From positions 1 to 55,170 of the forward strand of contig DAOWGI010000034.1 in assembly GCA_030637655.1 (NCBI GenBank): 55,170 nt of DNA. Reading direction: 5' to 3'. This stretch comes from a candidate division FCPU426 bacterium (lineage in GTDB: Bacteria > Oederibacteriota > JAAXVQ01 > JAUVAV01). The notes under the pieces were generated by a model. The model was not told the origin of the DNA, ran no database searches, and saw nothing but the letters and a program-made list of their open reading frames with translations. The translations under genes and the position numbers were made by a program. This document shows positions 8,431 to 51,603 of the stretch, one piece after another. Position 1 is the first letter of the stretch. Each line of letters starts with the position of its first letter.

Positions 8431-8537
8431 ACAATATCCTCCTTGCCCTAATTAACATTAGGGAAACCCATATATTTTGATACCAGATATTATTGATACC
8501 AGGCTACAATGTTTGAAGTGAAAAATATAGAATGAAA

Positions 8538-8567
8538 AGAATAGTATACTTCGAGGTAATATGTCAA
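8538..8567 (-). promoter_or_regulatory. sigma70-type promoter for rpoBC
   Basis: TTGACA-N18-TATTCT with an A-rich upstream tract, about 110 bp before the rpoB start. Confidence 0.55.
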
Positions 8568-8831
8568 GGTCTTTTTTTATATTTCACCATATTTATTTGA
8601 AAATGGAAGGGAATAATAGTGGCTTCGTTGGCTGACACACTCCGAGGCAGTGCCATTACATTGGTCCCTATATTAATATGTAGGTTTCACCATAAATACA
8701 GCCCCGTAGCCGGGTCTTCAGGAAAGAACACAGAGGGTGTAGCTATTCCGAGGCCTTCGCAACCCCGACCGGAAGTGAGGAATCTCCATGCTTACTCGAA
8801 GAAAATAGTCTATTGCCTCATTTCAGGCTAT

Positions 8832-20936: not shown

Positions 20937-22550
20937 TTATTTTAGCAGCACCACTTGACCTGTCATACGCTTTTCTGAAGATTTGATCTGATAAATATAC
21001 AATCCGCCTTCGCACAGCTGACCGGTCTCGCTCCGTCCATCCCATTCATTCTCATTCACCAATCTGCGAACCAATAGTCCGTTTATGTTCCAGATACTAA
21101 TGATATAGGTGCCGGCTCCATCGCAGTTGAAACCCGCCTTTTGACCCAAAGCTGGTAAAAACGGATTCGGGACCGCAGCACCCGGATACACAGAGGAAAA
21201 TATTTTAACCAATGATATCGGTGTACAGGTAGCCGTGCAAGTAATCGTAGCCGTGCAAGTAATCGTAGCCGTGCAAGTAATCGTAGCCGTGCAAGTAATC
21301 GTAGCCGTGCAAGTAATCGTAGGTGTGCAAGTAATCGTAGGTGTGCAAGTAATCGTAGGTGTGGGAGTAATCGTAGGTGTGCAAGTAATCGTAGGTGTGG
21401 GAGTAGTAACATAATGTTTTGTATAAATTTGAAAAGTGGGACCATTGGATTCCATCCAGGTTATATAGGGTGTCTGCTCCACTATATCTAAAGAAGGATA
21501 AACAGCATCATATCCTTCATCAATATTCAATTCCCCGCCCAATAATATCCAATCACTCCCATTCCATTTTTTGGCATAAATATGACAAATCGTACTGCTG
21601 TCAAATTCATGCCAGGTTACATAAGGTATTTGTCCGGCAACATATAGGCAAGGCATCATCGCAGCCTGGTTGCTGTCTATATTGAGACTTTTTCCCAATG
21701 AAGACCACGCACTACCATTCCATTGTTTGACGTAAATTTGATGATTCGAGTCATCATACTCATACCAAGATACATAGGGAGTATGATCAGAAATGAATAA
21801 GCTGGGAGAATATGCATTCTGAGTGAGTTTGGAATTCAGGGATCCGCCTAGGGAACTCCAAGTACTGCCGTTCCACTGTTTTACAAAGACACAAAAGTTT
21901 GGACTTAAAAATTCATGCCAAGCAACCACCAGCGTAGGATCATCAACATACAAATCAGGACTATATGCATTGTTTCCAGTATTAAGATTCAAACTTCCGC
22001 CTACCAACTCCCATTCGCTCCCATTCCATCGTTTAACATAGATTTGTTTGCTGGTACTACTGGTTTCTTGCCATGATACATAGGGAGTGAGGTTGGAAAT
22101 GTCCAAGCTGGAGCTTCGAGCATCTTCGGCAGAATCCTCATTCAAGCTTCCCCCCATTAATTCCCAGTCACTGCCATTCCATTTTTTGACATAGATTTGA
22201 TCAGCTATACCATTATCTTCTTGCCAGGAAACATAAGGCGTTGCATTTAACAAAGCCAGACTGGGCTCCTTAGCCGATTGACCGGTATTCACATTCAAAC
22301 TTTCGCCGATCAATTCCCAGTCACTGCCATTCCATTTTTTAACATAGATTTGAAATGTATAACTCGAATTGTTTTCATGCCAGACAACAAATGGTGTTTG
22401 ATTGCTGATTTTTATCTGTGGATTATAAGCAGGTTCGTTCGCATCCAGATTCAAACTCCACCCATCCTGAACCCATTCATTCCCCGCTGCTGCTATTGGT
22501 ATTAGAAGCAACGCGATGCCTAATATCGAAGTCTTCATTCGCTTCTGCAA
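20937..22550 (-). CDS. Secreted 7-repeat beta-propeller protein with Thr/Cys linker and FlgD-Ig-like C-terminal domain
   Basis: Signal peptide, then seven ~51-aa repeats (SLN...A..P.L...PYV.W.E...IYVK.WNGS.W), a (TPTITC/TATITC)n linker, and a PNPF...LVRRL...WDGR...GLYIYQI terminus. Confidence 0.85.
   Translation of the reverse strand: MQKRMKTSILGIALLLIPIAAAGNEWVQDGWSLNLDANEPAYNPQIKISNQTPFVVWHENNSSYTFQIYVKKWNGSDWELIGESLNVNTGQSAKEPSLALLNATPYVSWQEDNGIADQIYVKKWNGSDWELMGGSLNEDSAEDARSSSLDISNLTPYVSWQETSSTSKQIYVKRWNGSEWELVGGSLNLNTGNNAYSPDLYVDDPTLVVAWHEFLSPNFCVFVKQWNGSTWSSLGGSLNSKLTQNAYSPSLFISDHTPYVSWYEYDDSNHQIYVKQWNGSAWSSLGKSLNIDSNQAAMMPCLYVAGQIPYVTWHEFDSSTICHIYAKKWNGSDWILLGGELNIDEGYDAVYPSLDIVEQTPYITWMESNGPTFQIYTKHYVTTPTPTITCTPTITPTPTITCTPTITCTPTITCTATITCTATITCTATITCTATITCTATCTPISLVKIFSSVYPGAAVPNPFLPALGQKAGFNCDGAGTYIISIWNINGLLVRRLVNENEWDGRSETGQLCEGGLYIYQIKSSEKRMTGQVVLLK
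21229..21408. repeat. 18-bp coding tandem repeat, about 10 copies
   Basis: gtagccgtgcaagtaatc / gtaggtgtgcaagtaatc units encoding ITCTAT / ITCTPT. Confidence 0.95.
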
Positions 22551-22803: not shown

Positions 22804-25800
22804 CTATGGTTTGATAAGACCATTCTTGTCCGCAATACTATATTCCCAGTACTTAAGGCCCAATGGATAGATCTGATTATTTTCAACTGACATCACCCGG
22901 GGCAATCCGAATGAATCAGAAAGAACCATGTTTATGTTTCCTTTTGGAGTAATCACTACTGTTGGCTGATTAAGCCGCTTGGCCAATTCTATTGCCAATT
23001 GATCGCCAAAACTCTTGAAGGATACGCTTTTCAGACCAGTCTTACATGCTGCCAGGCGCAGAGTTCCGCCAGTCCAATGCAAGTCCTCCACCAGAATTCT
23101 CGCCAGAACTTCAGGGTTCACATTGCCCAGACCCTTCAAGCGCACCCATTGGGCCGCGCTTTGCCCGCTCGGCCACACTCCATGCGCGACCAGGGTTACT
23201 TCCTCCACTCCCCTCAAATTGGCCGCATGAATAGACTCCACTTTATATCCAGTCTTGGTTCCCATGGCCTGAGCGGACCTCATAACCAGCTGATCCGAAG
23301 GCTCGCCGTTTAAAATACGCGGTCCCTGATTCTGGGCTGCTGAAACAGTTTGCGATTGTACCTGAGGCTGGTGCGAAAGAGTGGTGTTTTCTAATTTATT
23401 TAATTGCCGCTGGGCTTCCAAGGCCCTGGCCTGGTATTCGCCTGTCTTTTGCAGCAACCGCTGTTTGGCAGGCCCGGCCGGCAAATTTTCAGCCTGAGAA
23501 CGCGTCAGTCGAACTTTTAATTCTAATTTCTGTATTTCGCTTTTAAGGGTCTGGATAGGAGAACCTTCCTCTCCCAAATCAGTCTGACCTTTGGTTTTTG
23601 ATTCCGGCTGATCCCGCAGACTTTTTCCATTTTCTTTAGACCCGGTCTCTTTAGGAGGACCTCGGGTAATCTTTGCATGATTGTGCTTGATTTTTGGCAG
23701 AGCATCTATTTGTGAAGGTCTCCTCTGCAACGGCTGGTTTTGAGGTAATATCCGTTCCTGGGGATTAACTGTCTTGGGCATGAATTTATCTTCCCAAATT
23801 TTATCAGCTATGGCTGGATCATGGATATCCGGCTTGGTATAATCAATCTTCAGGTCTTTGACTGATACGCCTTTTTCCTTGACTATTTCCGGGCTGTACT
23901 CGAAATCAAGGTACCCTGGTCTTTCCGGAACTCCACCATTGGCTTTGGAAATCGCATCCCCTTGGGCTGCTCCGATTGCCCTATGACGTCCTTCATGGAC
24001 AAAAACTTTGCCGGCTTCATTAACTCCAGCCAGAGTTTCGGTAGTATAATTCCGGCCAGACGTGGCCTCGCCCAGGGTCACGGCTTTATCCGCCTTGAAG
24101 CGGATGCGTAAATTATTTTCAGACGTCCGATAAACCACATAAGAATCAGCCTGCTTAACCATTTTACAATTCTCAGGGATCTCCAGGGAACTTTTCATTG
24201 CCTTGGTTAAATTCAGGTTGATTTGAGCCCCTGGCCCGTCACCTGCGAGCCGGCCATTGGGCATAGTCTCGCCTACCTTGTAGTTCACCGGATCAATACT
24301 TTTAATTCCTGCAAGCTTGCGACCCAATGAGAGCTCTGCAGGAGTAAAATTCGAATCGAATATGTCTATTTTTAATTGTTTGCCATGCCTGGGAACCAAA
24401 CGATAGAAGGTCTGGCCATTCTTGGTGACGATCTTCTCAGCAGCTGTGGTCGGATCTACTTTGAAATCAATATACTTCCCGACTTTCTTAGCCCCAGCTT
24501 CCCAGGCATACACACCTTCACCGTATTGAGCTTTGTGGCCTTTGGAAAGATTTAGTGCACCTTCATGCATCACACGAGCTGCACTGGCTTGGGGCATATC
24601 AGCTGTAATCGTATGCCTGAAGACCCGGTTACCGGCTGGTTCAATGGTCCGGCTGACAGCCTGGTTATATTGATCAGCTGCTGTGTTTTTAGCGCGAATC
24701 AAAGCCAATTGATACGGTGCTTTCCCAGTGCGTACATAGTCTTTGAATATATGGCGGACCATGGAAACTTGTTGTTTGTTCAATCCCAGATTACGGCCTT
24801 CTTTCATGATTTGAATATAGCTCTTACCCTTGGACAATTTCACCACATGCCGGGCAATGGATTTGACCTGAGCTTCAGTCAGATGTGCATATTTTTGCTT
24901 GATGGCGTCACGAATGAGCTCAACCCGGACTTTCTCTCTGGCCAAAGAGAATTCGCCCGCTTTCAAACCTGTGCCTTTTAATACCTGGGCTTGGGCTGTT
25001 TTGATCATACTCTTGGTCAGCGTCAAGGTTTTTAGACCGAGTTTGATCCGGACTCCAGGCTGCATTTTAGCAATGTTCATCTGGATGTCAGGCGGCAAGG
25101 ATCTGATCTTGATGCCATCCACAATTCCCTTAACACCTCTGGTAATACCCACCACAACCAATACTGCCAATCCTGTATCCGCCAAACCAGAAGCTGGATC
25201 ATTCATTAGATTCCCAGGAAGCTGGGTGAACATATGCACAAAGCCTTCACCCGTGGTTTTTAAATTCTTAAGTACTGTCCGGCCTGCTCCTTTGCCCCAT
25301 TGCTCCGAGGGTTGAGTAAGGCCTGTTAGAGTGGGGATAAAGAGTACAAACCCAGCCAAACCGCCGGTCAATGCAGTAGCAGCTCTTTCCTCCCAAGTGG
25401 CAATCTTTATAGGATCATGTGCATTAGCGATTTCAGTCCCCAGAATGTATTGATTCTTCAGCATTTCGCGTTCATGCTTATGGTACTCACCGCCCCAGGT
25501 ATCCACCCAGGCCCCCTCATTCTTTTCAGAAACAATTTCGGATCCCACACTACCAATGATGGCGTCTTGTAATCGTAATATAGAATACGAGGCAACCTTT
25601 AACCCACTGGCCAAGGCATCACCCGTATGATCTTTCACAGATCCCACTGGGTAAAAGGTCTCAGCTTTAGTATATGTGCTGTTAGGTCCACCTACTGGAA
25701 TTTGCTTGATGGCAGGCCAACTATTTCCCTGCATATCCTTTAAAGGTCCCAAAGATTCAAGCATCTGTTTCTCAAATCCCATGTCACCAGGATGGGCATA

Positions 25801-28800
25801 AACACCATCTTGTCCCATCAAAACCCTGCCATCTTGTTTAAGCATTTCTATTAGTCCGGCTGATTCTTCGGTAGGCAGCTCAAGAGTGTACTTTTCGCCA
25901 GACCGCGTTTCTACACGACCGCTATTAGTTTTTTCTGAAATAATGGTGGGTAATTTTTCAAAACCATATTGATCATACACGCCTTTGTCATTAATGATCA
26001 CAGCCGGATATTTGCCCTGGCCATCATAAACCCAGACCATGAGCGTTCCATCCTGGGACTTGGTCATAATTCCAGTGGGCAAGGTGAGATCAGCAATACT
26101 GCCGTTTTCATTAAAAATAATGCTGATGGACTTTTGGCATCCATTCTGCCGCAACCCCATTTCACCAAGCATAAGGGTTTCACCCTCATAAATTCCAAAC
26201 TGGATAAAATTCACAGCCACACTATTATCCTTAACCAGTAAGCTTAGATTCTCTACTTCTGCGATTGCATCTTTACCATGTAATTGTATGTTTCTATTGC
26301 CAGTAACAAAGTTACCGTGATATCGGCCATCTACTAAATCAGCTTTGCCATTTTTGTAGTCAATGGACAGATCTATGGTGATACCTTTCTTTAAAGTTAC
26401 TAGTAAATTGGCCAACATGGACAGTTCATGAATAACTGCCTTAAAACCTTCTCCCTTTATTTGTTTAACTTTAAATTCTCCATTTTTCCCTGCAGCAAGT
26501 TTAATCTCTTGTCCTCTTTGGTATATGGTTCCGCTTCCCCACTGCCAACCGTTTCGAGTATTTCTTAGCTGACCCACAAAGACTTTTATTTTTAGGGCCG
26601 GCAAGCCGGTCTTGCCTGTAATGGTCAAATGGCTGCCTTTTCCAAAAGCAACCTGATGATTTTTCATCATCTGGGATTGGTCTTCCTGAATCTCAGTGTT
26701 AATGACCATACCCACTTTGCCGCCAAAAAAAACATAGTCTCCATCTTGCTTTTGGTACATATGGGCTTGGGTAGCCGGCTCATATCCGGCCTTAGCGCTT
26801 CCCTTTTGCTGAGTCGCACCAGCAGTTGGTTCCCGGCTCAGCCAAACAGCTGCTTGAGCCACATTCAATTTTTCACGATCCTTTAAAATAACTTGGCCTT
26901 TTAATTGCCATCCACCACTGGCCAGGTTAGCTTCCAGGGCGAGCAATTTAAAATTCCTTTCCTTGCCATCCAAGAATACTTTTATGCCTGCCGGCTGCTG
27001 CATTTGTCCTTTGGCATTGAGATCAATCGTGATTTGTTGATCATCATATTGAATAGTGCCTTTTTGATTACCGGCTAATTTAAAGGACCCGCCTTTTTTC
27101 TCTAAAATCAGCCCTGAAGTCATTTCCTTGATTTGGACGCCTTCTGACAAGCTGCCCCAATTTACTCCCACAACAAACTCCTGACCTTCCGGACTGACTA
27201 TCATGTATACGTCTACACCGGATTCGCCCAATACTTCATAATTACCGACTTTTTGTTCGACGCGCACGCCCTCAATAAGAATGAATTGCTCTCCATCCCA
27301 TTCAAACAGCTGGGCTTTCCATAGTTTTCCATCTTCTGAAACTTGATTTTCCGCAAAACTCACTTGTTTTATGGTTCCAGGTGCAATCTCTTGAATGCTG
27401 CCGTCCTGATTAAGGGAGATTTTTCCTTTTAAGACACTACCATCATCCAGCTTATGTTCTTCAACCACACGCACATTTATAACCTCGTCTATTAATCCGG
27501 TAATTGCACTCCCTGCTTGGTTGGCTAATGCTGCAATCGATGCCAAACCTGTATTCAAGTATCCCGGCAGACTTCCATTACCTTGTTTGGATTGCGATTT
27601 CAAGTTGTATACCGCTTGATTTAAAACTTGGCTGGCAACAGTATGCTGGGTACCGGCAATCACTTGCTGGTTGGCATTGAGAACCACAACCTGGGTTTCT
27701 TTTTCATTCACCGTGGCCATGAGCGTGGAACCCCCAGGCAGTTTGCCGGTATCTAATTCAGTTGCGCATAAAAGCTCCCCAGCAAATTTAGAATCCGCGC
27801 CGGCCAGGAAGACTTCTGCTCCAATTGCTTTCATGCCATCCTCATCCTGCATTACCAGCCGGCCCTCGATCACCAGGTTCTCACCCTTATCTTCGCCCAG
27901 GCGCAGGACTTGGAGGTTTTTGTTGCCTGGCAATTGCATAAATATCTGAGAATCCTCCACCTCCAGCTTAAATCCCTGCGCCTCTGCGAATTTTTGCAGT
28001 TTGGCCTGCATTAGGTTTTCCTGCATCCTCACCAGTTTGGCGGTCAAGGCTGCCGGATCGCGCTTATCCATAACCGGCAGACTGGCCAGAATCTGTGTCT
28101 GCTCATCCTTTCCCAGGTCATTGAAATTCACTACTTGCACACCCGCAATATCCGGGCGGTCACGGAGGGCCGCCCCTGCATTTTCTGCAAACATAACCAG
28201 ACGTTGCTTGCCATTTTTCTTCTCATACACATACTCCAGTTGGCCGGTCTCCTTATTCATCGAGACTTCACGGCTGGCACCCATTTCCATTTGTGCCTGA
28301 TACACGACTCTGGACATCCCACCCGCTTGCAAGGCTTGGACCACTTGTTGGCCCACTCCTGAAAGTTGCGCCAGACCTTGTATATTCTGAATGCTGAATT
28401 GTCCGGCTGCCTTTTCTCCGTAGCTGCCATCGTTCATCTCAAAAATACGCCCCTTAGCCAGTACGCCTTCTTCCAGATTGTCGTATTCATAAGTCAGCAG
28501 CTGCATCTGACCATCATTAGTCCTATGCTCTGAAGCCAAAGCCAGGGCATTGCCTTGGTCATCCACTTTGAGATAGACCTGGCGGGTCATTTTGCCTACT
28601 GTGTCTTTTTCCGTATAAATTGCATCTGCTGATTTGATTTTTTCCAGGGCTGCTGAGTTTTGAATAATCTCTTCAGTCCGGCTCATGGCTTGTTGATATT
28701 CTTTGGAGTTTTTGGCTGCATACCTAAACGAGCCGACTTCCCGGTACTTGCCGTCAATATGACGGAAAATCTTGCCCGCTGCGACTAAGACCTTGCCGTC

Positions 28801-31800
28801 TTCACCAAAACGGAAATTGAAAGTACGAATTTCTTTTTGACCGCCGGCGCCCAGCATACCCGCAGCTACCAGTATGTCGTCTTTAAAGAACAAAGCCATT
28901 TCCTGACCATTGACCTCCGCATTAATCACTGCATCAAAATCAATGCCCTGCTTAGTCAAAAAATTGCCCATCTCATTGATCTCAGCTTTAGAGAGTGTGT
29001 CTAATTCTGATTTAGCTGTAATTAAGGATTCAATAATCGCGTTACGCTGGGCTGACGATAGTTTCTCTCTATTCTCTTTTTCACTGAAGAGCAAGGCACC
29101 ACCCTCGCCTGCTTGTGCCTCTCCCCGGGCAGTTATTCGCATATTGAGATTCCCTGAAGCAGAAGCCATTATGAGATTTTGGTTGTCTTGGTTGTCCAGG
29201 ACATTTGGAGTATTATCTGCGAAAACGTTTTGGAACAAATCATATCCATAAGCAAATATATCCATGGTTAAATCCATTACTGCTGAGGAATAATCCACCA
29301 CCGCCTCCAAAACAAATTGCTCAAAATACATCTGTCCCTCAGCTGCTTCTTCCATAGCCTCTTTCTGTTCCTTGATCTGTTGCTCAACCGGTTTGGCACC
29401 CTTGCCGGTTTTGTAAATAAAAATATTTATCTCATGATGTTTCTTGATATTCATAGACAAACCTTGTTTCAGCCCGGCGTTAAAAGCTTGACTGATTTGA
29501 TTCAATTGAGCGAGCGTTTGTCTTTGTTGCGCCATGGTGGATTGTGAGGTATTGACGTCTTTGACAATGGTGGACGTGATTTTCAAGGCTACTTGCATGA
29601 CCAAGGCGGCTGCCAATTGTCCGGTGAATCCCAATCCCATTTCTTCCAAGAGCGTGGCCAAAGCCATGGCCACCAGAGCTGATACAAAAATGCGGGTTAT
29701 ATCCTGCCAGGTTGGTAATTGAGTATTATTGCTTTCCCGGGGAGGTCCGGTAGCCGGATTGCTTTCCGTGAAAGCCACCATGCCAATGGATATGGCTGCC
29801 ACCAGCAAGAGTTGCCGGCCGTCTTTCACTCCGGAAGCCATGGCTGCGCCCACATTAATCGCTGTCACTAAGATCATTTTGGTGACCATGCCAATATTGC
29901 TTTGCATAAGAGCACCCGCTGCACCATACAGCAATCCTCTTAGTGCGGCTTCGCCATAATCCCCCTCATCACCCTTCAGAATCGCGGTTTGAATCAGCTG
30001 GTTGGTCACTGACAAGGCAATGGATGAGGCAACTTGAACTACTACTTGAAGAATGGCATTGGAAATATTAGCGGCTATTTCCCCAATCCCAAAACCTACG
30101 ATGGATACCCCTGCATTAAGCGCGGCCAGACCCAGACTTGTGCTAAAATCCATACCCGCAATATAGTTTTTCACCAAATTGCTGCCAAAATTTATCAAAA
30201 TGGCAAAGGGCTTAAAGATTGGGAATATGGTACCAATAACTGAGACCACGATTTCACCCAGCGTCATGGTCCAATAGAGAATTTCGCCGAACACGGTCAT
30301 GCCCACGCCTTCAGGCTGGGTGGAAACATGCGTAATATCCGACTTATCTTTAGTGCCTTCAGCATCCATATTGCCGTAGGCATCATAAGCATATTCAGTC
30401 AAGCCATGGCTGGGATGGGTCCACTGGTTGGAGTCACGATTCATGGCTCTGTATTGGTTTTGCGAATGATTTGCAAAGGTTAGTCCTGCCGAATTCTCCA
30501 GCGTCCAGGTTGACATCCAATCCAGCGTGGTCTGCCAATCATAATTGTACCACTGCGCATTGTCGTGTTTAGGCAGGCTCATCACCACCGTAGTATAGGT
30601 CCAAGCATCTCTACGGCTGCCATTTCTGTGATAAGTAATATTCTGGCTTAATTCCATACCCTCAGTACGGTTGCCATCATCGCGGCGGTATTCAGTTAGA
30701 ACATTGGTGGGTTGTCCCAATTGATTAAAACTTGAGGTTGAAGTATAGGTTATGGTGCCTACTATAGTTATGACATCCTCAGGCTCACCCATAGAACTGC
30801 TGGTTTCCCACCACAAAAAGTGCGTGGGATCCAGCCATTGAAATTCGTATTTGGCAAGCTGACTGGAAAAAGACCTCGATTCCAGTTCACGCCCATACTG
30901 GTCATACACAATGTCAGTCTGAATATAACCCAGGTTGATATCGGGATTGTTGCCAAGATCAGAGTGAATCCCGGTTTCGTGCGTGGCCCGGACAGCTTGG
31001 GTTTCAATAAGATCGCTATCTCCCACATATTCTTTCTCGGTAGTCACATAAGCTATGGCATTTCTCCAGCCGGAGTCCAAGCCAGGCAGATTTCCGCCGC
31101 CGGCCTGGTTCCACTTGCGTTGTTCTTCCATCCTTACCACTCGGCCTAATTCGTCATACTTGATATTGTCAACTTGATACCAAACTGTCACAAATTCAGC
31201 ATAGTTGCTGAAGATAGCCAGCAAGCGGTTGGATACAGCTGTAGTTAAATCAGCTGCACTGGGATCAAAAACATGTTTCAGCATATCGCCAAAAGTTATG
31301 ACGCCTAAATTCAAGGTATTGGTTGAATCTTGAAAACCGGATAAAGTGCTGCCAAAAACCTGACTGAAAATGACGCGCATATCTGACTCATCAGGCTGCT
31401 GAAAGATAAGCTTTTGAATCAAAGTGCCAAAACTGATCATAACCGGCGACACTTCATCCTCAGTCGCATAATCCGTATTGGCCAAATGCAGGTCATAAAT
31501 TTCTTGGAGGGTTAAATCTAGAAGATTGTTACCCAGACTATCCAGAAACGTATCACCAGCCAGCAGGCCGGCAGCTAAATTTTGCGCGGCGGCCTCGTCC
31601 AGGGCTGCCGGTTTACCGGGAAAATTCAAAAAGGCTTGCTTTAAGATTTCCGTGAGCACATCTTGCAAAGTAAGGTTTAAGAGTATGCGACCGCCTGTGC
31701 CGACTGTATCGCGCACCTCGGCGTCAATGGAAGCCAAGCCGGTAATGGTGAGTGTGAAGATATCCAGGACCTGCTCGTCCGCAACCACTGCGGTTTCATA

Positions 31801-34800
31801 GGCGCCCCAACTATCACCTATTAGCAGGTAAAGAATGTCTGCCGGAGTGAGGTAGCGCAAAGGAATTTCTTCATTATCAATACCTGAAAAGGTGATGCTA
31901 TTCTCGGAAAAATATCCCAGCAAGGCGCTCATCACATCCAGCAGAGCATCGGCGAGGCTGATGCCTGTATACCCCTCATCAGCCAGAGCATCTGCTATAG
32001 CTGGTTCGAGAAGGTTATATAAAATTTCATAGATTCTCTTGCCGGCTAAACCCGGCATGTCCGGCGAGCTTAGAACATCCTGTATGCTCACATTGACAAC
32101 AGGCTGACCGCCAACTGCTTGATAGAGGGTATATTCAGTTGGATTGAGGTCAGCATAAGACTCTGCCTGGCTGGCGTCTTTGCGATGGTATTCATAATAA
32201 CTCTCTGGTTGTCCCAAACTGTTGTAAAGCGTCCAGGCACGATTGATAATAAATTTAGTGTCCAGGGCGCCTTGCGTCCAATCCGTGTCATGCAGGGTTT
32301 GGTTGTAACTGAACAGCTGTCCCAGAGAGTTATAAACCATGCTGTTTTGATTCACAGTGGTAATCTTGTTTATAGCGCCATTGTCATCGTATTTCTTGAT
32401 TTCACGTTGCCGGGCCTGGCCGAGCGAGTTATACTCCTTCACCTCAGTGACCTGCTTGTAGACGTGATTTAAATTGAAGAGACCGCCGGTTTCAGTGATT
32501 TGCTTTTTTGACCATATCAAACGATTGGAAGTGTCGTATTCATTGTCCAGCAGGGATGTCTCTGTGATGGTAATATCCTGCTTGGCAATGACCTTGGTCT
32601 CGCGAAGAATTTGATCCAGCTCATTAAATTCGTCTATGCTGTGGATCAAGGTATATTGTGAATCAAGATTACCGCCGCTTTCAGTGATACGGTTGGAAAA
32701 AGCCTGCACACGGTTGTAATCATCATAGGTTTGGTCCACCAGGCTGTATTCTTCGATAACATGATTGCCATGTGTGGTGGTCCGCGTCATTTGGGCCACT
32801 TTACCTAAGAAGGTAAACTTCCGGTTTATAGTAGTGACAGAATAGGTCTTGCCGAGGCCATTGATTTCAACTGCTTGGGGGCATTCTTCCGGTTGGATTG
32901 TCTCGCTAGGTTGAGTACTGGTTTCTGTGTAACTGGTTTGGGTTTCAGTGATTTGATGCAGGTCATTGTAGGCAACAGAGGTGGCATGTTCCACCACGGT
33001 CTTAGTTTTATTCGTGGGAGGACCTGTGGAAGGATGGGTCTTAGTGTATTCATCTGTGGTAAGACGATATTCAGTCACCCGGCCCAATTGGTCAAAGAGA
33101 AGATTTTCAGTTAAGGTCTCTGAGTATAGGGACAACTCGCTCCCCTTGGTTTTCTGATCTTTTATGGAACGCGACATATTAATTTGTTGGATGCGGCCAA
33201 GCTCTTCATACTGGATATCTGTCAGAGTTTCTTCGTGAATCAGTTTGCCGCCATCCAGTGTATCTTTGACATACTGCTGTAAACGATTTTGGCTGTCATA
33301 TTGCTGATCACTCACAGTTTCCACCAAAGTACGTCCGGCATCAAGGGTGGTCTGGGTATAGGCACGAATCCGGCCATAATTGTCAAACTCCGTGTTAGTG
33401 GTATCCAGAGTATACGTGTGATTTAAAGCGCCAGTGCCCACGTCACCTTGCTCAGTGATTTCTGAATATTTATGAACAAGTCTGCCTTGGTCATACAGCA
33501 TGCCCGATACCATTTCAATCGTAGTTTTAGAAGCATCTTCAGTGGTTTGTTGATAATCTTCCATTTTGCCTTGAGAGTTGTAGACCATGTTCTCCATAGT
33601 AACTATATAAGTATGGTCTAAATTGCCATATGTTGAATTGCCGCTCTCCGTCCACTCTGTTTTGGAGTAAACCAATTGCCCGGCTGAATCATAATCACAG
33701 TCTTCCAAGGTTTCTTCTGTGGTGGTCTTGTTAGCGTCAGTAGTAACACGCAGGTATTCAATTAATTGACCTATGCTGTTATAGGTCATTTCCGAAGAAT
33801 CAACGGTGTAGTATTGATTGACTTCTGCTCCCATGGTGTCAGTGCTTAAGACATTAAAATCATGCGTTTGCGCAGTGGCCAAATCAATTTGGCGATAGGC
33901 CAGACTGGATGCCTCCATTTGGTTGTCCTGACTGTACTCCAGTTTGGTTCCCCCGACATTCTGCTCAATGGTTACCAGATCGTCCTGGATGCTCACGCGC
34001 TTGACAGTAATGGCCTGATCCAAATCATTGTAGCCATTTTCAGTCTCTACTGTGCCGGCCGTGCCGTTTTCATCTCTTTGCACCAAACTGTGCGTGAGGT
34101 TGCCGCGCAAATCATAGGTTAGTCCGGATGCTTGCTCGATCACTTCATGCTGTCCTTGATTTTCTTGGCTAATTTTAGTGTACGAGCGGGCTTGATCCAG
34201 CAGATTGTAGTCATTATAAGCGGTTATGACTGAATACTTTTTATTTAGAGGCAAGGTTTTTGTCACATCCTGCTCATGTACTGTGACATTGGAATAAGCC
34301 AGGCGGCCATAGCGGTCATAGGTTAAAAAGACGGCCTTCTCTTTAGTTTCTTTATCACCCCGGGTGTGAGTACGTGTATACCCACTGACCTGCCCAGTGG
34401 CTGAATCATACTCATTTTCAGTTCGCAGAGTATAGGTGTAATCCAATTCTGTGCCGTCTAAGATAAATCCATGGTCTTTTTCTTTAATTTCCACGTTAGT
34501 AAGCAAAACACGTTCTTCAGCAGCATATTGAATATCCGCCAAACAAGTCTCTGTGCTGATCTTAACTACTTTGTCAGTTTCGTCCTTGTGTTCCATGGTA
34601 CGGCTATAGCGCAGCACCTGGCCCAAGTCATTGTAAGCATGATTGTCCATGGTCAGGGTATAAGCGCGATAATACTCTCCTCCGTTGGCAGGCACATCCT
34701 TCTCAACGAAATCAGAAACTTTATGCGTGATTTGCCCAACCTCATTATAATCAAGGTCAGTGCAGGTTTCCGTGATCTGCTTGTCTCTTTCAGTACGGGT

Positions 34801-37800
34801 CTGGGTAAATTCAATCTGTTGGCCCAAGTCATTGTAAGCAACGTTGGTGAGAGCTTCAGTCCATTCCCGGCAATAATCCATTTCTGACACACCTGCCAGG
34901 ACTTCTTTGTTAGCGGATGTTTGGCCAATAACCTGATCATGTTCATTGTAGCTGGCAGTAATTTTTTGTTCAGTCTTTTTGCCCCCACGGATTGTAAGGG
35001 TGGTATATTCATCGGGCAAGCCCTGTTTATTGTAGCTGGTGTAAGTAGTATCCACGTTGTAACTGTACAGTAGATCAGTTTGATCATAGACGTTTATCAA
35101 ATCTCTTTTTTTCTCTAATTGCTGCTGCTCATTGTAAGCAAGGTACGTAATATTTTCACGGGTAGTTCGATGATTGTCCGTGGTGGTGGTGATTTCCCGG
35201 GCAGGCAGCTGGGTGCCGGCTGAGTACCCATATTGAGAATTACGTTGATAAGTATGATCCAGGTTTCCACCCTCTTCATGAATAAAACGATACATGCCAT
35301 CCAAACGGCCGTCAGCTTGTGAAAAGACCTGGTGAATTGATTCAGTGGTGGTTTTGGATCCTTTGGTAATAGTCTGGGTATAATTGGCCATGCGGCCCAT
35401 CCAGTCATATCCCTCGTAAATGGTTCCAGCTACTATCGCGCCGGCCTGCAAGGTCATAGAATAAGCAGCAGACTTGGTCTGTCCTGCAATGACAGTATAG
35501 TTGGTTACCGTGGTATGCCGGCTTTCCAGTCTGCCTAAATTATCATATTCAACCTGAGTCACATTATTGACTGTCCGCTTGTGATTAATAATGCCTTCAC
35601 AGGTAGCGGAAGCAGTAATGGTCTCAGTGTAGCTTTCCAAGAATCCGGCATCCGCAGTTCCGGCGGCATAGTACTGCATGTTCTCCCGGCTGGTCTGTTT
35701 CCAATAAAAATCACCTTCATAAACCTTGTTCACTGAGCTGATTAGTTCTCCGGTGGAGGTATTGTATTCAAAATCATTTATCTCCCTTACCACCTGGCCG
35801 CTAATTTCCGTTCGTTTTATCTCACTGTGCGTTACCTCACTGCCAGTGTAGGTATAATCCGTTTCCTCTCTGAACATTTGTCCGCCGCCGGCATAAACTT
35901 TAAAATCTATGGGAAGACCTTCCACGTCATCAGGTCTTTCTGTGGTCAAATCCGGCTGTTCAAAGCTGCCGCCAATATCCTGCCAGATTTTTTTATCACT
36001 ATGTTTCACCCGGCCATAGTCATAAGTAAATTTGGTCAACTCCCTGGTCATAACACCACCAACATCCAGTCTAATTACATCAGAAGATTTTAAAATCCCG
36101 CGGCTGTCATACAGCAGAGAGGCATCTTCTATGCTTTGAACGGGCCGGTTCTCAGCGCCAACCAAAGTTGTTGGCGGATTATAGGCAATTCGCTTTCTTT
36201 CCGAGTCCGCGTCATCCGGATTTTCTAAATAGGTCTCTACTGAATAAGCAGGCTGATTGGCTTTAATGGACCGCGTATAGGTTGGCTTGGAATCTCCTTT
36301 ATAAGCATAATAATAGTAGGTATCCTCTACTGTGGATATATTCTTAGCATCTGTATGAATGCGAATGGTTTGACTGGTTCTGGGATTGGTTCCATCCAAT
36401 TCATAGCGAAATTCCATTAAATCTGTCTCCACCCGGGCATTGGTGGATTCTTGGTAAGCCAAGGTTTGGCCGGCCTCGCGGAAATCAGGTCTGTCAAACA
36501 AGGCATTCGCAAAGCCCTGGAAATCAGCCTGGCTTAGGGAACTGTCCAGCAAGCCTTGAGTCAAAGAAACGTCAAAACCGGTGGTGGTTGCTATCATACC
36601 AAAGACGTCGCGGTTGGAGACCTGCTTGTAATCCAGCACTTCAGTGTATTCAGCCACCCATTGTTCCTCATTGGCGCGCCAGCGGAGTTTAAGCAGCTCG
36701 GAGGCTCTGCCCTTGTCATCATATTTGAAGAATATCCATTCCTCGGTCTCCAAACCATTGCTGCTGGTATTGATTTGATGTATTCCGATCTCTTTTTTTT
36801 CACCATTAATATCCCTCAGCGCTGTTTCCAGCCTTTCTGTGCCGCTGTTCCGGTTGACGGCCAGACGGATATTGCCGGTCTCAGAATCCGGCCGCAAGCT
36901 GTCCTTGAGATAAAGCTGTAGTTCCTGTTCTGTTTGCTTCCAGGTCTCCCTGTCTCCCTGGCCGGAATAACGGATATTTTGCATGTGCACGAGCGTCACA
37001 AAATTATTGGGCAGGTCGTCTGCGTAAGCAGCATCCATTTCAATCCATTCTTCCTGACCTGCCAATTCCCAAATACCGATTAATTCTTGCTGTCTGGATT
37101 CTGACAAGGCATCCCAAACCGTGTATTTGCCGTTTAGCACTAAGCCTTTGCCTGCAAATGTAAATTCCTTATAATCCGAGACTTGACCTAAGGTGTTGTA
37201 CTGGGTGTCCTTTCTTACGGTCACGGATGTTGCATCAATAGGCAGCCGGATTGAGCAGGCAGTCAAATTATACTCACTACCATTCAGTACTACTTGGTCG
37301 GTTGCGTCCAAATTTAGACCAGCCAGATCGATCAGGCCGATTTTTTCATTATCGCTTAAAGCCTTGGCCGCAATTTCCATACTTGCACCGCCATTGGCAA
37401 CCAAAATCGTGCCCAATCCCAAGGTGCGGTCAAATGCTTCTATTTTATTCTGCCGGATGATTTGCTCCGCCGCGCCCTCCGGACCAAAAGACTTGCCGGC
37501 AAATGTCGCTTCCAGCAATTCACCTAAAGCAGTGGTGACCGGCCCCAAGACGCGCATGGTTCCGATCCAATCCTGCAGGCGGCCATGGTCATCGTATTTC
37601 ACTTGACCCATGCTGTTGACTGCTACGGACTTGTTTAATGTTTCTTTGAATCTGCCGTGTGTCAGATTGTCCTTATCCGCCTCACTTAATTCCTGCCAGC
37701 GTCTCTCCTCCCCGCGATAGCCAAGTGTATCTCCCTGGAAGATAATGTTGCTGAATCGTTCCATCTGATTGCTGTCATCGTACCCGGAAAGCGGAATACG

Positions 37801-40800
37801 GGTAACCATGGTGTTTGTTTTGCCCTCAGCAATATCACCGGAATGGGAGGTGCGCACCATGGCTGATTCACGCAGTTGGCCGCGGGTGTTGTAGGTATAA
37901 GTAGTTTCTTCCTGTACATAGTTCGTAGTTCCTTGATCATGGGTTTCACGAATACGGCGGCAATACAACAGTTGGCCTAAAGAATCATAGACCATGTTTT
38001 CTTCCGTAAGCTTGTAGACTTTGGTGTAAGGATTGGCATCCGGAGGATTGCCCAGGGAAGCCTCAATCACTTGAATTTCACGCCTTTGCCTGCGGCCGGC
38101 ATAGTATGCAAACACCGTGGTAGCAAGAGTATCCTGGTTGCTCTCTGTGATTTGCTTCCGGCCGTCCACAATAATACGGGTCTGCCGCGCAACCTGATTT
38201 TCATCATTGTAGCTGTGAATTGTGGTCTCAACTGTATATTGGTGCACAGGCAGATCACCATATTTTTCAGATATGCTATTAAAGGCATAAGTCATCCGAC
38301 CTTCAGGATCCTCATATTCCATAGTCAGATCCTCAGTGGTAACCTTGTTGCCATCCCGGGTGAGCTTCCTTTGCCGGGTCACTTGCTCGGATTGATCATA
38401 CTCCAAATTATCGATCTCTATTTCATAACTGCGGTAGTACAAATGAGTTTCACCATTGGCTGCCGGAAAACCTGTCTCCTGCACCTTGCTTTTACTGTGA
38501 ATCAGGCGCTCCCCATTATAGACCATTTCCCGGACATCCTCTTCAGTGCGCTTTTCATTGTCAATAATGGTCCTAAAGAGCGAAATCGCCTGCCCCCGGG
38601 CATCATATTGCATATCCCGGGTGATAACACGCGTAACTTTACCTTGTTCTCCAAAAGCTTCCTGCGCAGCCGCCCGATCCGCCATGACCGCAAAATCTCC
38701 GGCTGTCAGGCCTTCACTCTCCCTCGTTTCCAAAATCAGCATATCAGAAAATTCCACCTGATTCTGAAGGTTGTAACGCATGGCACTCAATGTTTTTTCA
38801 AAGATCCACTTGGCATTCTCACAGGTTTCCCTTACAAACCCTGTCATCTGGTCCAAATGATTGTACTTCATCCCTGTGGTATGAATTTCCTTGGATGTAT
38901 CGACATGCCCCACAGTTTCTTCAATGAGTAAATGGGACTCAATTAAGCGGTCAAACTCATCATATTGGAGAGCTTGCAAGGTGCTTTCCACAATAGTGCG
39001 GATTCCTTCTGCCTTGGTCCGGATATATTTGGACATATTGCCCTGGTTGTCGTAATCCATGTCCTTCGTGGTTACAGTATAGGTCCGTTTCACTTTTTCA
39101 GTATCCTGATAGCGGGTCTCATGCACTATAACTTGATTGCCGGTCATGCGGCCTCTGGCATCATGAGCATGGTTTTGGGCTTCAGTTATTTTCAGTGAGC
39201 CGCTGCCTAAGATTTCAACCATCAGAGCCTCGGGCTCCTGTTGCAACACTTCCTGTTTTTGCTCTTCAGCCAAGTCCAGCCATTCGATGACTTGCCAATC
39301 ATCCCCGGTTTTTGCTTTGACCCGTACCTGCGTCCCAGTAAAGGATATCTCTTGGTATCTGTCCAGTAAGCCGCGTTTCTCATAAGTTATATTCCGGCGT
39401 GAAGCAGTCAGGTTCTGGCCGGCATTAACTTTGATTTCTGCTTGCTGTGACAAGCGGGCTAAATCATAATCTTCCCCAAGGTTTATTGCCTTGCCCTGGC
39501 TTAAGGTTTGCGCCTGTTGCGCTGTCAAATTGAATCCCTGACCATCTAAAAGGAATGCATTGCCGAATAATTCCTCGGAAATCCGGATACTTAATTCCTG
39601 TGAGTCTTGGTTAATCTGCCGCAGCATTTCAATTTCGATTTGCAAATCAGCCTGTGCAGCTTGGATACCTTTTTGCACACTGACCATGGTTTCCAGGATA
39701 TCCTGTCCGGCTTGTCGGTCCTGGCCGGCATTTAAAAGATCAGTCACAGCCTGATCGTATAAAGGTTTTTTTCCACTGACGCCATGGACCTGGTTATAAG
39801 CATCATCGTGTTCAATCCGGGCCTGGAGATAGCGGTCTTTGGCAGTGGTTTCAGTGTTGGCAGTATCCAATAATTCCGTGCCAGTGACAGCAATGCCTAA
39901 ATCACCTTCATAATTAGCCAGAGCTCTGTCTTTCAAGGAAGTGATTAGATTCAGGCTATCATAGGCATCTTGGCAAACTGTGATGGCAACATCGAGAGCT
40001 GTCTTCGCTGCCAGATGTACTGAAATGGCAGACTGCCACTCATTAAATTTCTGATCTACAACTGTTTGCAAGGGCGGTATGGTGTTTAATTGATCTACGT
40101 ATGCTTGATATTTCTGCTGTTCTTTGGTCGTATAGAGAGCTTGCACTTGAATTTTGTAGTCATCAGCTAAAAGACCTGCCAAGGCATTTATTTCATTAGT
40201 CGTCAGTTCAAGTAAAGTATGAACCTTATCTTTTAACGGATCATATTTATCCTGTACTTCCCTGTCTAATGCACTTTTCGCGTCTCTGTAGTCTTGTATG
40301 ATTGGTTCGACAATATTCCGCTTATCAAATTCACTTGGTTTACCATTAAAGATTGATTTTGGCTTTACTACATAAGATTCACTATAATAATACGTCGAGA
40401 AATCGTGATGAGTATGATCTAACTCACTTTGATTAGGACAATTAGGAAAGACCAGCCAAGTATAGTGTATACCCCATGCAGGTGTATCATCATATTGTGA
40501 CATTACAGTGCTTGTCACGTCATATCTTCTCATTGTTGCACCAGAATAACTATATGTGCCATTTGGACCTACCCAATCAGCATAGGAAATGTCACATAGG
40601 TTATCCGCGACATTTTGCGATTCTGTTTCAAACGCATTCACCAAACTCTTTACCACGTCTACTTCATCATCAAGTTGACCGGAAATAGAAGTCCAGGCAT
40701 TATTAAGATTATTCAATTTAGCCAAAAGAGAATCTGCTTCGCCTTGCGCGGCATTTCTTATACCAACGGCTGTATTATATTCATTTTTTGCAATACCTTT

Positions 40801-43800
40801 TGCTACCAAAGCTTGGTCAAATTGATCGCACAAGCCTCCAGCCAACGCAGGCTGCCCGCCATCCAGCCAGCCGATTTGCTGGTCAATGTTTTCAGCAATG
40901 GTTTGGCAGCTATCACAGAAAAGGGCCAAAGCATCCTTTAAATCCAAGGCCTGCTGCATTAAAGTCTGAACCGAACTTTCTTCCGTCAAAAAAGCATCGA
41001 TGCTGTCCATGCCGATTCCTAAGGTATCAGGCCAGGGTGCTCCCACATTGCCGGCATCCCAATTGCCAAGCACATTGGTAATAGTGCTGCGTATGCTTTC
41101 CAAATCAGCAGCAGCCTGAGCATAATCAGCACTGGCATAAACCTGATAATAGGTTTTTAAATTATCAATCGCAGTGTGCAGATTGGCATAATCTGTACCT
41201 GCCCAATTCTTAATGTCTGTTATCAATTGATCTTGCTGGTGTATGGCCTGACGCCACTGGTTTTCCACAATAGCCAGAGCATTGACAGCTTCCACCAAGG
41301 CACTGGTCTTATCATTAAGGAACTGAAAGGCAGCATCCAATGCTTCGCGGGCAGCATCCACATTGTTTTCCTGGGTTGCTTCATCCACAAATTTAGCTTG
41401 CAAACGTAAAGTAATCTCCTGCATCACGGCTGCGGGATCATTCCTGTCAGGTAAATCACTGCCAAAATAGGGTACTGCCAGATTTGAATAAGCAGCTTGC
41501 CAAGCATCCTGGGCTTGCTGGAACAGGGCTTGTTGTTCTGCCACTACTTCTTCCTGTTTCTCAATCATTTCCTGCTGTTGAGTCAGGGATTCGGCCATGA
41601 TTGCTGCTTCAGAGAAAGCCTGGAAAGTAAAGCCGCGGCGATGGGTGGTGAGGTCATAGCCGGTCATTTGCTGAATGGCATTGTAGGTCACATTTTCATA
41701 GCAATTAATAGTAACCAGCTCTTTGACTTCTTGCACTTCATCGACAAGGTTATTGATCAGCCGGCTGCGGTCTGCTATAGCCAGGGTGCGCCAATCAGTT
41801 TCCACTCCATTGATCTCGAGAATATCGCCCTCAAACACGGTTTCTTTATAAGCCACAGCTTGATCCAAGGGATTGTAGGCATAGTCATTGCGATACAAAT
41901 GCGTGATCTTCTCACCCTCTACCAGGCGGGCCGCATAGGTGGCATAGCGCTGGGTCTTGCCTTCATAGGTGACATTGACATCTGAGATGGTAATCTTATC
42001 AGGCGCAGCTGAAGAACGGGTTTCTTCCTGCCAGGCGATGGGACGATTCAATTCATCATAAACCGTATCCCGGCGCTGGGTAATTGTGACTGTGTAATCA
42101 AAAGGATGGAGTTTGGCATAGGCTGTATCAGCCGCGGTCCAGGCCGGTAAGGTGGTTTGTAGAGACGCGATTAATCGCGTCTCTACAGCCATGGATAAAT
42201 TTTCAACGAATGATACGAAAGGAGATAAGGTAAGATTGGTTGTTAATTCTGCTAAGAGATTATCAAAGGCATCTGCGGTTTGGAATAATAAATTGCTGAT
42301 AGTTGACAAAAGATTTGTGACAATATTTCTAATTTCATCAGTAAAGCCGGATATATTTTCTGCCATCCAATTTTGGATTTTCCGGATAATACCAAGAGTA
42401 TCAAATACCAAGAGATTGGCAATCTCCAGAGTCTGGAGAATCCATTCCTCAGTTAAAGCAACTGGGAATCCATTCTGAACTTCACTCAACCATTCACTAA
42501 AGCGCCGCAAAATCCCTGCTGCCAAATCCTCATCCGCATTCACTTCCAGATAGCCCAATTGCCGGCCATCCTGGTCAAAATTCACAGCCTGGAAAATATG
42601 CTGAACCGGCTTTTCCTCAGCATTGGTGCCCAGGATCAATTCCTGGTAAGCTGCTATCATGCCTTCGTGGCGCCACAACTCGTCTGTTGCTGGAGGTTGC
42701 GACCCATTTGGTGGAATTTGATTTGACCAAGTTTCGCCTTCATCCGGGGAATTCTCAGTTTGTCCATAATATTCAATGCCTGAACGAATCGAGGCAATGG
42801 TTGATTCTTGCGTAAGGCCTTCATTTTCAATCTTATTGGTGATGGCCTCATGATAGGATTGCAGGCGGCCATCTGCCTGGAATCGGGAATGGCTGCGCTT
42901 TTGGATGACAGTACGGGTACCAAAATCCGGTGAGATCTTTTGGGTGGTACTAATAAAACGCAGCAACTGGCCCAGGTCTGTGTAAGAATCTTTAAAATCA
43001 GCCAACCACTCAATGCTGACTTCTTCCTGCAATACGCCCGCTGGATCATGCACTGTACTGGTTTCTGTGTAGCCGAGTAATTGACCTTTGTCATTATACC
43101 CCTGAGGAGATATGACTTGCCAATCTGTAGTTGTAATTTTCTCTTGATCTTCCTGCTCAAGTACTTGGTGGTAGGATAAGCGGCGGCCTTTTTCATCATA
43201 AGTAAGGTTGCTTACAATCTTGACATAATTTCCTTCAGTAATGTTCCAGCCGTTTTCCACATAGCTTTTCAGGCAAGAGAGATGATTGTAAACTATTTTG
43301 CTCTGAGACTTCTCATAGCGTCCGCTCTCATTCCAGCCATTTTCAGTGAAGGCGAGTATGCGGCCCAATACATCGTAATTTTCAGGCTCACTTGACCATT
43401 GCCGGTCAATGTATTTGCCATCGGCAATACCCTTTTCATGATAAGCCAAAATCCGGCCATGGGAATCATAGACAATGTTCTCCCGCATCAAGTTGTTATT
43501 CACGCCACTGGCTTGGGAATATCCATTGGTCACATAACCCATCTCACGGCCATTAGCGTCAAATCCCAGTACTTGCCAATTCTTTTCATATTGGCCGGTA
43601 GCTGGTCCATTGCCAGTCTCAAAATAGGCTTGCAGATGCCCGGATGCATCATAATCCATATCCAAGCGAGTGTAGGTGGAGGTGTATTCCTCAGGCAAGC
43701 CTAAATAATGTATGGTCTGTTCAGTGAATTCCTGTATTAAACCAGCAATGTATTCCCCAGCCTGCCAAATCACACGCGAGGGAATGCTCTCCAGTAATTC

Positions 43801-51174: not shown

Positions 51175-51197
51175 GAGACCCCCCTTGGAATCCATAA

Positions 51198-51563
51198 CTA
51201 TAGGATTGCAGGATTAAGAATTTCTGTGATCAAATTCATATCATACGGTTTCTTAATAAACCGTTTGGCTTGATACTTTTTCATCAAATGCACAACTTCC
51301 TCAGTGTATTCCCAGTGAATCAGGATTGCGACTGTCTCCAGCTCCCTACACGCATTGAATTGATCTATTTCCTCTTGCCCATTTTTAATGGTTTCCACAT
51401 CAATAAAAATAAATTTAAAATGATGACTGCAGAGGACATTAGCTAAAAGGTCGTGCTGCGTGCTTAAAAATACTCTGTTGAATCCACACATATTCAAATT
51501 TTCTTTCAGTATTTCTGCAAAAACCAGGTTTATGTCTAGAATCAAAATATTCTCATTCAACAT
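51198..51563 (-). CDS. Stand-alone atypical receiver (REC) domain protein
   Basis: ILILD...FIFID...ILIH...FIKKPY receiver pattern. ATG 51563 has an AGAGG RBS. The track start (51620) lies inside the sigma54 promoter. Confidence 0.75.
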   Translation of the reverse strand: MLNENILILDINLVFAEILKENLNMCGFNRVFLSTQHDLLANVLCSHHFKFIFIDVETIKNGQEEIDQFNACRELETVAILIHWEYTEEVVHLMKKYQAKRFIKKPYDMNLITEILNPAIL

Positions 51564-51603
51564 CACATTACCTCTGTAGCTAGATTTCCTTATACGTAGG
51601 AAA

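Follow-up and report, generated by a model that had tools for sequence, protein, structure and literature searches.

In MARTX toxins an array of effector domains is followed by a cysteine protease domain (CPD) of the peptidase C80 family, which cleaves after Leu. We describe here a layout of comparable kind in the C-terminal tail of a giant open reading frame (ORF) on contig DAOWGI010000034.1 (GCA_030637655.1) of a candidate division FCPU426 bacterium; the whole stretch of 55,170 nt which was analysed is called the window. The other close counterparts are the polymorphic toxins surveyed by Zhang, de Souza, Anantharaman, Iyer and Aravind in 2012 (PMC3482391). According to the main text of that survey these have a long repetitive N-terminal stalk and a variable C-terminal toxin region, share modules common to Rhs, PAAR, TcB/TcC and PVC/eCIS-type carriers and may hold several toxin domains per protein, all of which applies to the protein described here. 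The same text lists Tox-ParB, Tox-ART-HYD1/2 and HYE1 domains, caspase-like peptidases acting as releasing enzymes or as toxins, arrays of caspase-like domains, and a multi-toxin giant, SACTE_5178, of 13,652 aa. Since that survey already records giants with several toxins and caspase-like peptidases, the kind of protein is a known one.

Giant proteins of at least about 10,000 aa, with unannotated beta-rich regions likened to RHS and with C-terminal transmembrane segments, are reported from Omnitrophota (West-Roberts et al., bioRxiv 10.1101/2023.11.21.568195). These differ from the present protein in carrying cell-wall-degrading, C39 peptidase and SecA-like domains, and the main text of that report describes no payload of ADP-ribosyltransferase (ART), ParB-like or C80-like type. 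A literature search on giant, toxin and RHS proteins of Elusimicrobia, covering main texts, gave no account of this family among the matches listed; similar architectures may be contained in Additional File 1 of PMC3482391.

The explanation we prefer, with a probability of about 0.58 for the whole, is that the giant ORF codes for an unusually large polymorphic toxin of the stalked kind, whose variable tail ends in a row of three modules of toxin systems. Its N-terminus is signal-peptide-like; then come about 6,900 aa in which 51 YD-like motifs occur, and after these a hydrophobic cluster and the variable tail. In the tail about 700 unannotated residues are followed by two hydrophobic helices, a Lys-rich stretch, domain A, a spacer, domain B, a linker and domain C (Table 1).

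The initial annotation, made from the sequence alone, had proposed three candidate effector domains at the C-terminus of the giant protein, and this was borne out. The short strings on which it relied were found in place: NRVFRHT at residue 8856 (window 24630), YGEGVYAW at 8891 (24525), YIDFKV at 8908 (24474) and VFVHEGRHRA at 9064 (24006). A HMMER search with residues 8700-9463 as query against 1.84 billion cluster representatives had hits in 205 proteins at E<=0.001, of which 115 reached E<=1e-10 and 6 reached E<=1e-30. These hits form three non-overlapping blocks, query positions 128-265, 305-440 and 590-755, which are residues 8827-8964 (domain A), 9004-9139 (domain B) and 9289-9454 (domain C) and agree with the proposed ranges. 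Profile hidden Markov models of the three domains, built from subsets of the same hits, were then scanned over the 150 relatives listed: 55 were of type A, 62 of type B and 33 of type C, and among these listed matches no protein combined two of the three. The domain ends no more than 60 residues before the C-terminus in 54/55, 45/62 and 24/33 of these proteins, respectively. A, B and C are therefore real, separate and conserved domains, far beyond chance, and their conserved residues are intact in the window's own copies. The low-complexity or coiled linkers of the initial annotation are also as described, with 39 aa between A and B and 149 aa between B and C, the latter with a stretch that by eye looks heptad-like; this stretch was read from the sequence, and pLDDT (the predicted confidence of the model) declines towards the end of the model of domain B. 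Leu-small dipeptides occur in every linker of the tail.

Relatives of all three domains sit behind known toxin carriers, for which reason we regard A, B and C as cargo modules of polymorphic toxins. Domain A is carried elsewhere by a protein with SpvB, TcdB_mid and RHS_repeat (P0020) and by one with RHS_repeat (P0139). Domain B is carried by proteins with eCIS_core (P0004) and RHS_repeat (P0007, P0024), and PAAR, Tox-PAAR-like and PT-HINT are found among its shorter members. In Pfam scans domain C is associated with RHS_repeat (P0068) and with eCIS_core, also together with LysM, and the N-terminal parts of its members are similar to the ends of the Rhs core in the solved chains of TccC and YenC2.

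The carrier itself points in the same direction. Closest to it are three giant proteins (P0154-P0156) with lengths of 7,589-7,965 aa, two of them labelled Elusimicrobiota/Elusimicrobia; further kin are an ortholog-like gene in a related genome (G005) and a paralog on another contig (C8) of the same genome. The similarity to all of these stops at residues 7875-7907, and behind this point their tails differ, with Ntox10 in P0155, a region that by eye is GHSxG hydrolase-like at the end of P0156 and a tail without Pfam family in G005. The carrier is conserved and the C-terminal tail variable, which is the logic of polymorphic toxins. The YD-repeat chassis of the initial annotation, on the other hand, was left unconfirmed by the RHS_repeat, TIGR01643 and Rhs core models. 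Loose motifs of the form Y[DN]xx[GN]x[LVIM] occur 51 times between residues 367 and 6937. Across residues 1-7964 no Pfam family, including RHS_repeat (PF05593) and TEN_YD-shell, was found at E<=0.01; on the giant protein YD_repeat_2x (TIGR01643) reached only E 0.42 and 11.2 bits, and Rhs_assc_core gave no match. The solved Rhs, Tc and teneurin shells had no phmmer match to residues 1-4999, and no DPxGL motif precedes the payload, the only DPxG[LWIM] being at residue 852. Shorter proteins related to residues 6960-8700 were looked for by a word-based search, and none came up.

The genome has at least one further giant gene: the frame on contig C8 (G000:C8:1-5000, L063) extends without a stop over 8,540 aa up to the start of the contig, where it is cut off, with 33% identity to residues 6915-7875 of the window's giant protein. 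The Gly/Ala-rich cluster, made of moderately hydrophobic helices and possibly a membrane anchor or else a module for pore formation or translocation, is common to this paralog. The start of another contig of the same genome, C82 (G000:C82:1-8000, L064), holds a 1,678-aa frame opening with an Ntox10-like stretch (26.7 bits, cut-off 26.8).

Domain A was modelled by AlphaFold2 with a pLDDT of 93.8 and a predicted template modelling score (pTM) of 0.87, using an alignment of 53 rows. Foldseek against PDB gave nothing at E<=0.001 for this model, and the only rows with a probability above 0.5 were yeast Tpt1 and Tne2. A VIA-align comparison to 48,161 chains gave nine chains with Z>=5, headed by Tne2 (Z 6.4, root mean square deviation (rmsd) 2.6, 87 aligned), with mouse Tpt1 (Z 6.3) in second place and followed in the list by scabin, three Rhs C-terminal toxins, diphtheria toxin, PARPs, DarT, pierisin, pertussis toxin, CARDS toxin and Arr. 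Going by their titles, no fewer than 34 of the 50 rows belong to PARPs, Tpt1, DarT, diphtheria-type or classical ART toxins, and the count rises to about 45 of 50 with Rhs toxins, Tne2, CNFy, AvrPphF, 6b and Tse2, which we take to be ART-like. Although the Z values are middling, the list is uniform, and on this ground the model is accepted as an ART fold. Tne2 (6b12), Tpt1/KptA (7yw2, 7yw4) and the Rhs ART toxins (6xtd, 7zhl, 8s2m, 7rt7) have the same split beta-sheet. Domain A shares with ART-fold toxins the status of Rhs/Tc cargo and, going by its predicted strands, appears to have in common with them a His at the first core strand, a G-x-G-x-Y at the second and an invariant Glu; it differs in an identity of only 4-16% to its structural matches and in four arginines (8834, 8849, 8860, 8932) which are a feature of its own.

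The conserved residues of domain A are H8861 in F-R-H (46/48), Y8896 in G8892-x-G8894-x-Y (53/53) and E8920 (53/53), each on a predicted strand of the model, together with D8910 (46/53), R8932 (53/53), R8834 (46/46) and R8849 (48/48). The initial annotation had likened this domain to the H-Y-D ART toxins of Tox-ART-HYD type. The ART fold of that proposal is supported by the model and by VIA-align, but not the HYD detail: E8920 is invariant, and the Asp of YIDFKV (D8910) is the less conserved acid, which would make the family H-Y-E in type. The Pfam model Tox-ART-HYD1 (PF15633, cut-off 25 bits) has no match to domain A at E<=10, nor in the 53 rows of domain A and its 52 relatives at E<=0.1. Membership in Tox-ART-HYD1 was not detectable, with hhalign giving a probability of 0.2% (E 0.28) against four true HYD1 domains, although FRH/RH and YID/YIE align by eye despite the non-significance. 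As part of the preferred explanation, domain A is predicted to be a new ADP-ribosyltransferase-fold family of H-Y-E type, consuming NAD+ or transferring ADP-ribose.

Most domain-A relatives are stand-alone proteins of 317-622 aa whose N-terminal halves have no Pfam family. Thirteen genomic domain-A loci (L003-L015), from hosts including Methylosinus, Methylocystis, Methylocapsa, Bradyrhizobium, Bosea, Planctomycetota, Verrucomicrobiota and Acidobacteriota, had no conserved neighbour gene around domain A beyond close kin.

Domain C is highly conserved at His9338 (27/27), at the Gly next to it (26/27) and at Cys9384 (26/27); the His and the Cys are 46 residues apart, each behind a hydrophobic, strand-like stretch. 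The Pfam model Peptidase_C80 (PF11713), the family of the self-cleaving domain of MARTX and large clostridial toxins, matches 8 of the 27 domain C members below threshold (best 22.4 bits, cut-off 23.8), over profile positions of about 37-149 out of 154, and DUF4347 matches two of the 27. In the ESM atlas the neighbours of domain C include a DUF4347 cluster (0.89) and a C80 cluster (0.79). As C80 template we used seven domains passing the PF11713 cut-off, which came from 2 of 401 sampled genomes. Profile-profile comparison (hhalign) of domain C to these true C80 domains gave a probability of 83.3% (E 8.6e-6, 106 columns), in an alignment which pairs His with His, Cys with Cys, AHG with GHG and AAC with (V/A)GC; as controls, the profiles of A, B and ParB_N gave a probability below 1% each against the same template. 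A word-based search from the domain C alignment found five proteins, none annotated as C80, and sequence searches of PDB matched only Rhs-core portions of relatives. It is thus likely, judging from sequence profiles, that domain C is a remote C80 relative with an aligned His-Cys dyad, and the terminal protease-like domain proposed initially is supported in this form. In one relative, P0133 (3,184 aa), six domain-C-like copies are placed about 450 residues apart, a layout which fits an array of caspase-like repeats as described in the main text of PMC3482391.

The AlphaFold2 model of domain B has a pLDDT of 90.2. Foldseek against PDB gave nothing at E<=0.001 and a best row of E 0.39 with probabilities of at most 0.47, the better-superposed rows being Atu1540, SbnI and Noc. 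In a wide VIA-align search no chain reached Z>=5; the top four were Atu1540 (Z 3.8, rmsd 3.6, 78 aligned), the free serine kinase, SbnI and sulfiredoxin (Srx), and 8 of the 31 rows were ParB/Srx, with KorB, PadC, human sulfiredoxin and ParB-N lower in the list and mostly kinase N-lobes among the rest. A second VIA-align run on the Foldseek top 1000 had ParB/Srx-fold chains on all ranks from 1 to 14 and in 15 of 24 rows. The nearest folds are Atu1540 (2hwj), SbnI (5ujd/6nr6), SerK (5x0b), sulfiredoxin, ParB, Noc and KorB. The motif E9068-G-x-H9071-R9072 is nearly invariant (E9068 35/36, G9069 36/36, H9071 35/36, R9072 36/36) and is placed by the model at a strand-to-helix junction, between a strand at 68-72 and a helix at 74-81. 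ParB/Srx proteins have their phosphate-binding box, GxxR or [DE]GxHR, at such a junction.

From these comparisons of the model we lean towards a ParB/Srx fold for domain B. The alternative is another or a new fold, such as a restriction-endonuclease-like nuclease, in which E-G-x-H-R would be convergent, and several results weigh on that side. The best Z of 3.8 is under the level which the tool calls common, the Foldseek E values are 0.39 or higher, and Pfam ParB_N (PF02195) has no match to domain B at E<=10 nor in the 36 members at E<=0.1. Against 19 ParB_N domains hhalign gave a probability of 0.5%, but this template set is narrow, consisting of chromosomal ParB from the organism's own phylum. 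The named ESM-atlas neighbours are toxins of restriction-endonuclease fold (Tox-REase-9/7/3/5/2 and an EC869-like CDI toxin), at low scores of 0.77-0.82. However, no chain of restriction-endonuclease fold is found in either the 31 or the 24 VIA-align rows, both of which are headed by ParB/Srx chains, and the motif sits where the ParB/Srx box does; a different fold for B is thus a possibility to be entertained only tentatively. The Tox-ParB-like domain of the initial annotation stands in so far as ParB/Srx chains lead both VIA-align lists, weakly (Z<=3.8), and falls short in that no similarity to the ParB_N profile was found. Domain B is probably a toxin with a motif of phosphate-binding type, putatively a very divergent nuclease or phosphotransferase of ParB/sulfiredoxin fold.

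Support for B as a toxin comes from genes next to its relatives. At four of six metagenome loci the gene abutting or overlapping the stop of the B gene encodes a protein of 163-212 aa; these proteins have a mutual identity of 27-49%, a G-R...H...S-T-N-G-S pattern and weak FHA likeness (EssC E 0.014; TB39.8), and their placement and sequence suggest a candidate immunity family, which would support domain B as a toxin independently. In the main text of PMC3482391 the carriers given for Tox-ParB are RHS repeats and a PVC metallopeptidase, as for domain B, and the immunity proteins are Imm20, Imm27 and SuFu. Domain B differs from Tox-ParB in that its neighbour family is weakly FHA-like and neither Imm20, Imm27 nor SuFu, in its Z of at most 3.8 and in having no profile link to ParB_N.

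The positions of all features, including the genes surrounding the giant ORF, are collected in Table 1.

Table 1. Features of the giant ORF and its surroundings, in window positions except for the candidate immunity genes, which are given by metagenome locus.
Feature	Position	Strand	Residues or size	Remarks
Giant ORF	22804..51195	minus	28,392 bases, 9,463 codons	uninterrupted frame
Gly/Ala-rich hydrophobic cluster	29566..30300	minus	residues ~6966-7210	within conserved carrier part
Variable tail	22807..27474	minus	residues ~7,910-9,463	unique to the window's protein
Two hydrophobic helices	25120..25383	minus	residues ~8605-8626, 8674-8692	Kyte-Doolittle, 19-residue window, threshold 1.6
Lys-rich stretch	24718..25119	minus	residues 8693-8826	from composition; apparently helical (by eye)
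Domain A	24304..24717	minus	residues 8827-8964	predicted ADP-ribosyltransferase fold
A-B spacer	24187..24303	minus	residues 8965-9003; 39 aa	Gly/Asn/Lys-rich
Domain B	23779..24186	minus	residues 9004-9139	small alpha/beta; weak ParB/sulfiredoxin likeness
B-C linker	23332..23778	minus	residues 9140-9288; 149 aa	low complexity Q/L/K/P, heptad-like helical stretch
Domain C	22807..23331	minus	residues 9289-9463	Peptidase C80 (CPD)-like, His9338-Gly and Cys9384
Next downstream gene	20937..22550	minus	537 aa	secreted repeat protein; not immunity-type
140-aa ORF	51198-51620	minus	140 aa	weak receiver-domain match, E 7.8e-4, below cut-off
RND efflux operon	10444-19763	minus		outer-membrane factor (OEP), HlyD-type adaptor, two AcrB-type pumps
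Candidate B-immunity genes	L066:569-1171, L067:1585-2184, L069:584-1219, L070:818-1306			adjoin B-toxin genes

A working scheme can be drawn for the giant protein as a stalked toxin. The signal-like N-terminus would direct its export, the long beta-rich repeat stalk would display the payload, and the hydrophobic segments which precede the payload may help in crossing the membrane. Once in the target cell, the C80-like domain would cut the flexible linkers and free A and B, of which A would use NAD+ or transfer ADP-ribose and B would act as nuclease or phosphotransferase. Export, display, the role in membrane crossing and self-cleavage are what we infer.

Not all observations are in favour of this explanation, and those which count against it are the following. 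Pfam and NCBIfam found zero significant families on the whole 9,463-aa protein, even segment by segment at E<=10, and the Pfam C80 model had no match to the window's own domain C at E<=10. Position 8912 of domain A is Lys in the window and Glu in 41 of 53 relatives, so that with the usual Glu replaced the activity of domain A may differ. Downstream of the giant gene there is no gene of immunity type, and the 253-bp gap behind it has no minus-strand ORF of at least 35 aa; the candidate B-immunity family was not found at E<=1 in the organism's own genome (3.28 Mb, 91.6% complete). Such a gene may be located at another place or in the 8% of the genome that is missing, the tail may be inactive until processed, or its targets may be unlike the producer. 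Lastly, if the hydrophobic segments were ordinary membrane anchors, the payload would lie in the producer's own cytoplasm.

This last point leads to a reading in which the tail is never delivered: the hydrophobic segments, which at residues 6966-7210 and 8605-8692 are indeed upstream of the payload, would anchor the protein in the producer's membrane, and A, B and C would be cytoplasmic modules for regulation, self-processing or suicide, as the missing adjacent immunity gene might also suggest. We hold this to be quite improbable. All three families are elsewhere cargo of delivery carriers (Rhs, TcB/TcC, PAAR and eCIS-type), an active ART or NADase without inhibitor would harm the producer when placed in its cytoplasm, and variation among relatives is confined to the tail, as in delivered toxins. 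Decay of the three domains to relics without activity is very improbable, given that the 28-kb frame is free of stops and that the window's copies of A, B and C keep all residues which are invariant or nearly so, except for three off-consensus positions of domain A; these, N8856 (usually P), K8912 (usually E) and T8916 (usually G), could be cited for decay, but none of them is invariant.

Domain C may act as a releasing enzyme or as a toxin. If it were itself a toxin protease, the tail would hold three parallel warheads, with A and B acting uncut or freed by some other protease. Against this, the C80 domain of MARTX toxins likewise stands behind the effectors, domain C is internal, with further sequence behind it, in 9 of 33 relatives, and the six copies of P0133 fit processing. 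Yet domain C is last in the remaining 24 relatives, often right behind the Rhs core where a toxin normally sits, and the main text of PMC3482391 considers terminal-most caspase-like peptidases as likely toxins and internal ones as releasing enzymes. We regard a purely toxic domain C as doubtful.

The stalked polymorphic toxin can also be phrased in a stronger and more specific form, as an independently arisen, MARTX-style, self-processing multi-effector toxin of an uncultivated phylum, with a new kind of beta-repeat carrier of about 7,900 aa. In this form its targets would be, e.g., protists or other eukaryotes, and a cofactor of the target cell would activate the C80-like domain, which would then release a new H-Y-E ART and a ParB-fold phosphotransferase or nuclease. 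That neither an adjacent immunity gene nor the B-immunity family was found would be accounted for by an aim at cells unlike the producer. In all its details this is rather unlikely.

As to MARTX toxins proper, the MARTX-like payload proposed in the initial annotation is a fair analogy, since the CPD-like domain stands behind the effectors. Common to both are unrelated effectors in a row, flexible linkers and a C80-type His-Cys domain behind them, and Leu-small dipeptides are present in the linkers of the giant protein. In distinction to MARTX, there are no RTX-type repeats nor any other Pfam family in the giant protein, the pump encoded downstream is of AcrB-type RND and not of type I ABC, and the relation of domain C to C80 is no more than a remote one, found by profile-profile comparison and staying below the Pfam cut-off. 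The differences from polymorphic toxins are the lack of an adjacent immunity gene, of an Rhs core and of RHS/YD repeats recognised by profiles; in addition, A, B and C are outside the Pfam families which originate from PMC3482391, and a combination of two types was seen in none of the 150 listed relatives. By sequence no solved structure in PDB matched the payload of the giant protein (phmmer and hmmsearch were negative for A and B), and no second copy of domain A, B or C was found in the organism's own genome.

The 140-aa ORF upstream ends three bases ahead of the start codon of the giant gene, which suggests co-transcription. The 537-aa protein encoded downstream is signal-bearing and has a TPTITC low-complexity run and a C-terminal domain without assigned family. 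On contig C82 (L064:5140-7491) and in the related genome G005 (L062:7223-9013) the gene after the giant gene likewise encodes a secreted repeat protein, there with Por_Secre_tail, a type IX-style sorting domain, and with LVIVD repeats in one and DUF285 in the other; giant gene and downstream secreted repeat protein may form a conserved partnership. The resistance-nodulation-division (RND) efflux operon 3 kb downstream of the giant gene is an ordinary one, and no ATP-binding cassette (ABC) exporter or type I secretion operon was seen among the giant gene's neighbours in the window.

What is new here are three unannotated domain families and, as compared to the 150 listed relatives, their unique combination in one protein, together with a carrier recognised by neither Rhs nor RTX profiles and without an immunity gene nearby. 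The three are widespread families of toxin cargo (55, 62 and 33 of the 150 best representatives) which current domain libraries miss; one of them is predicted to be a new ART family and one is likely a remote branch of the self-cleaving C80 proteases. A fragment of 640 residues would make the idea of a built-in protease tractable. If the C80-like domain does free A and B, the MARTX design of an effector array plus protease would be a general and repeatedly reinvented one, and not a peculiarity of a few pathogens.

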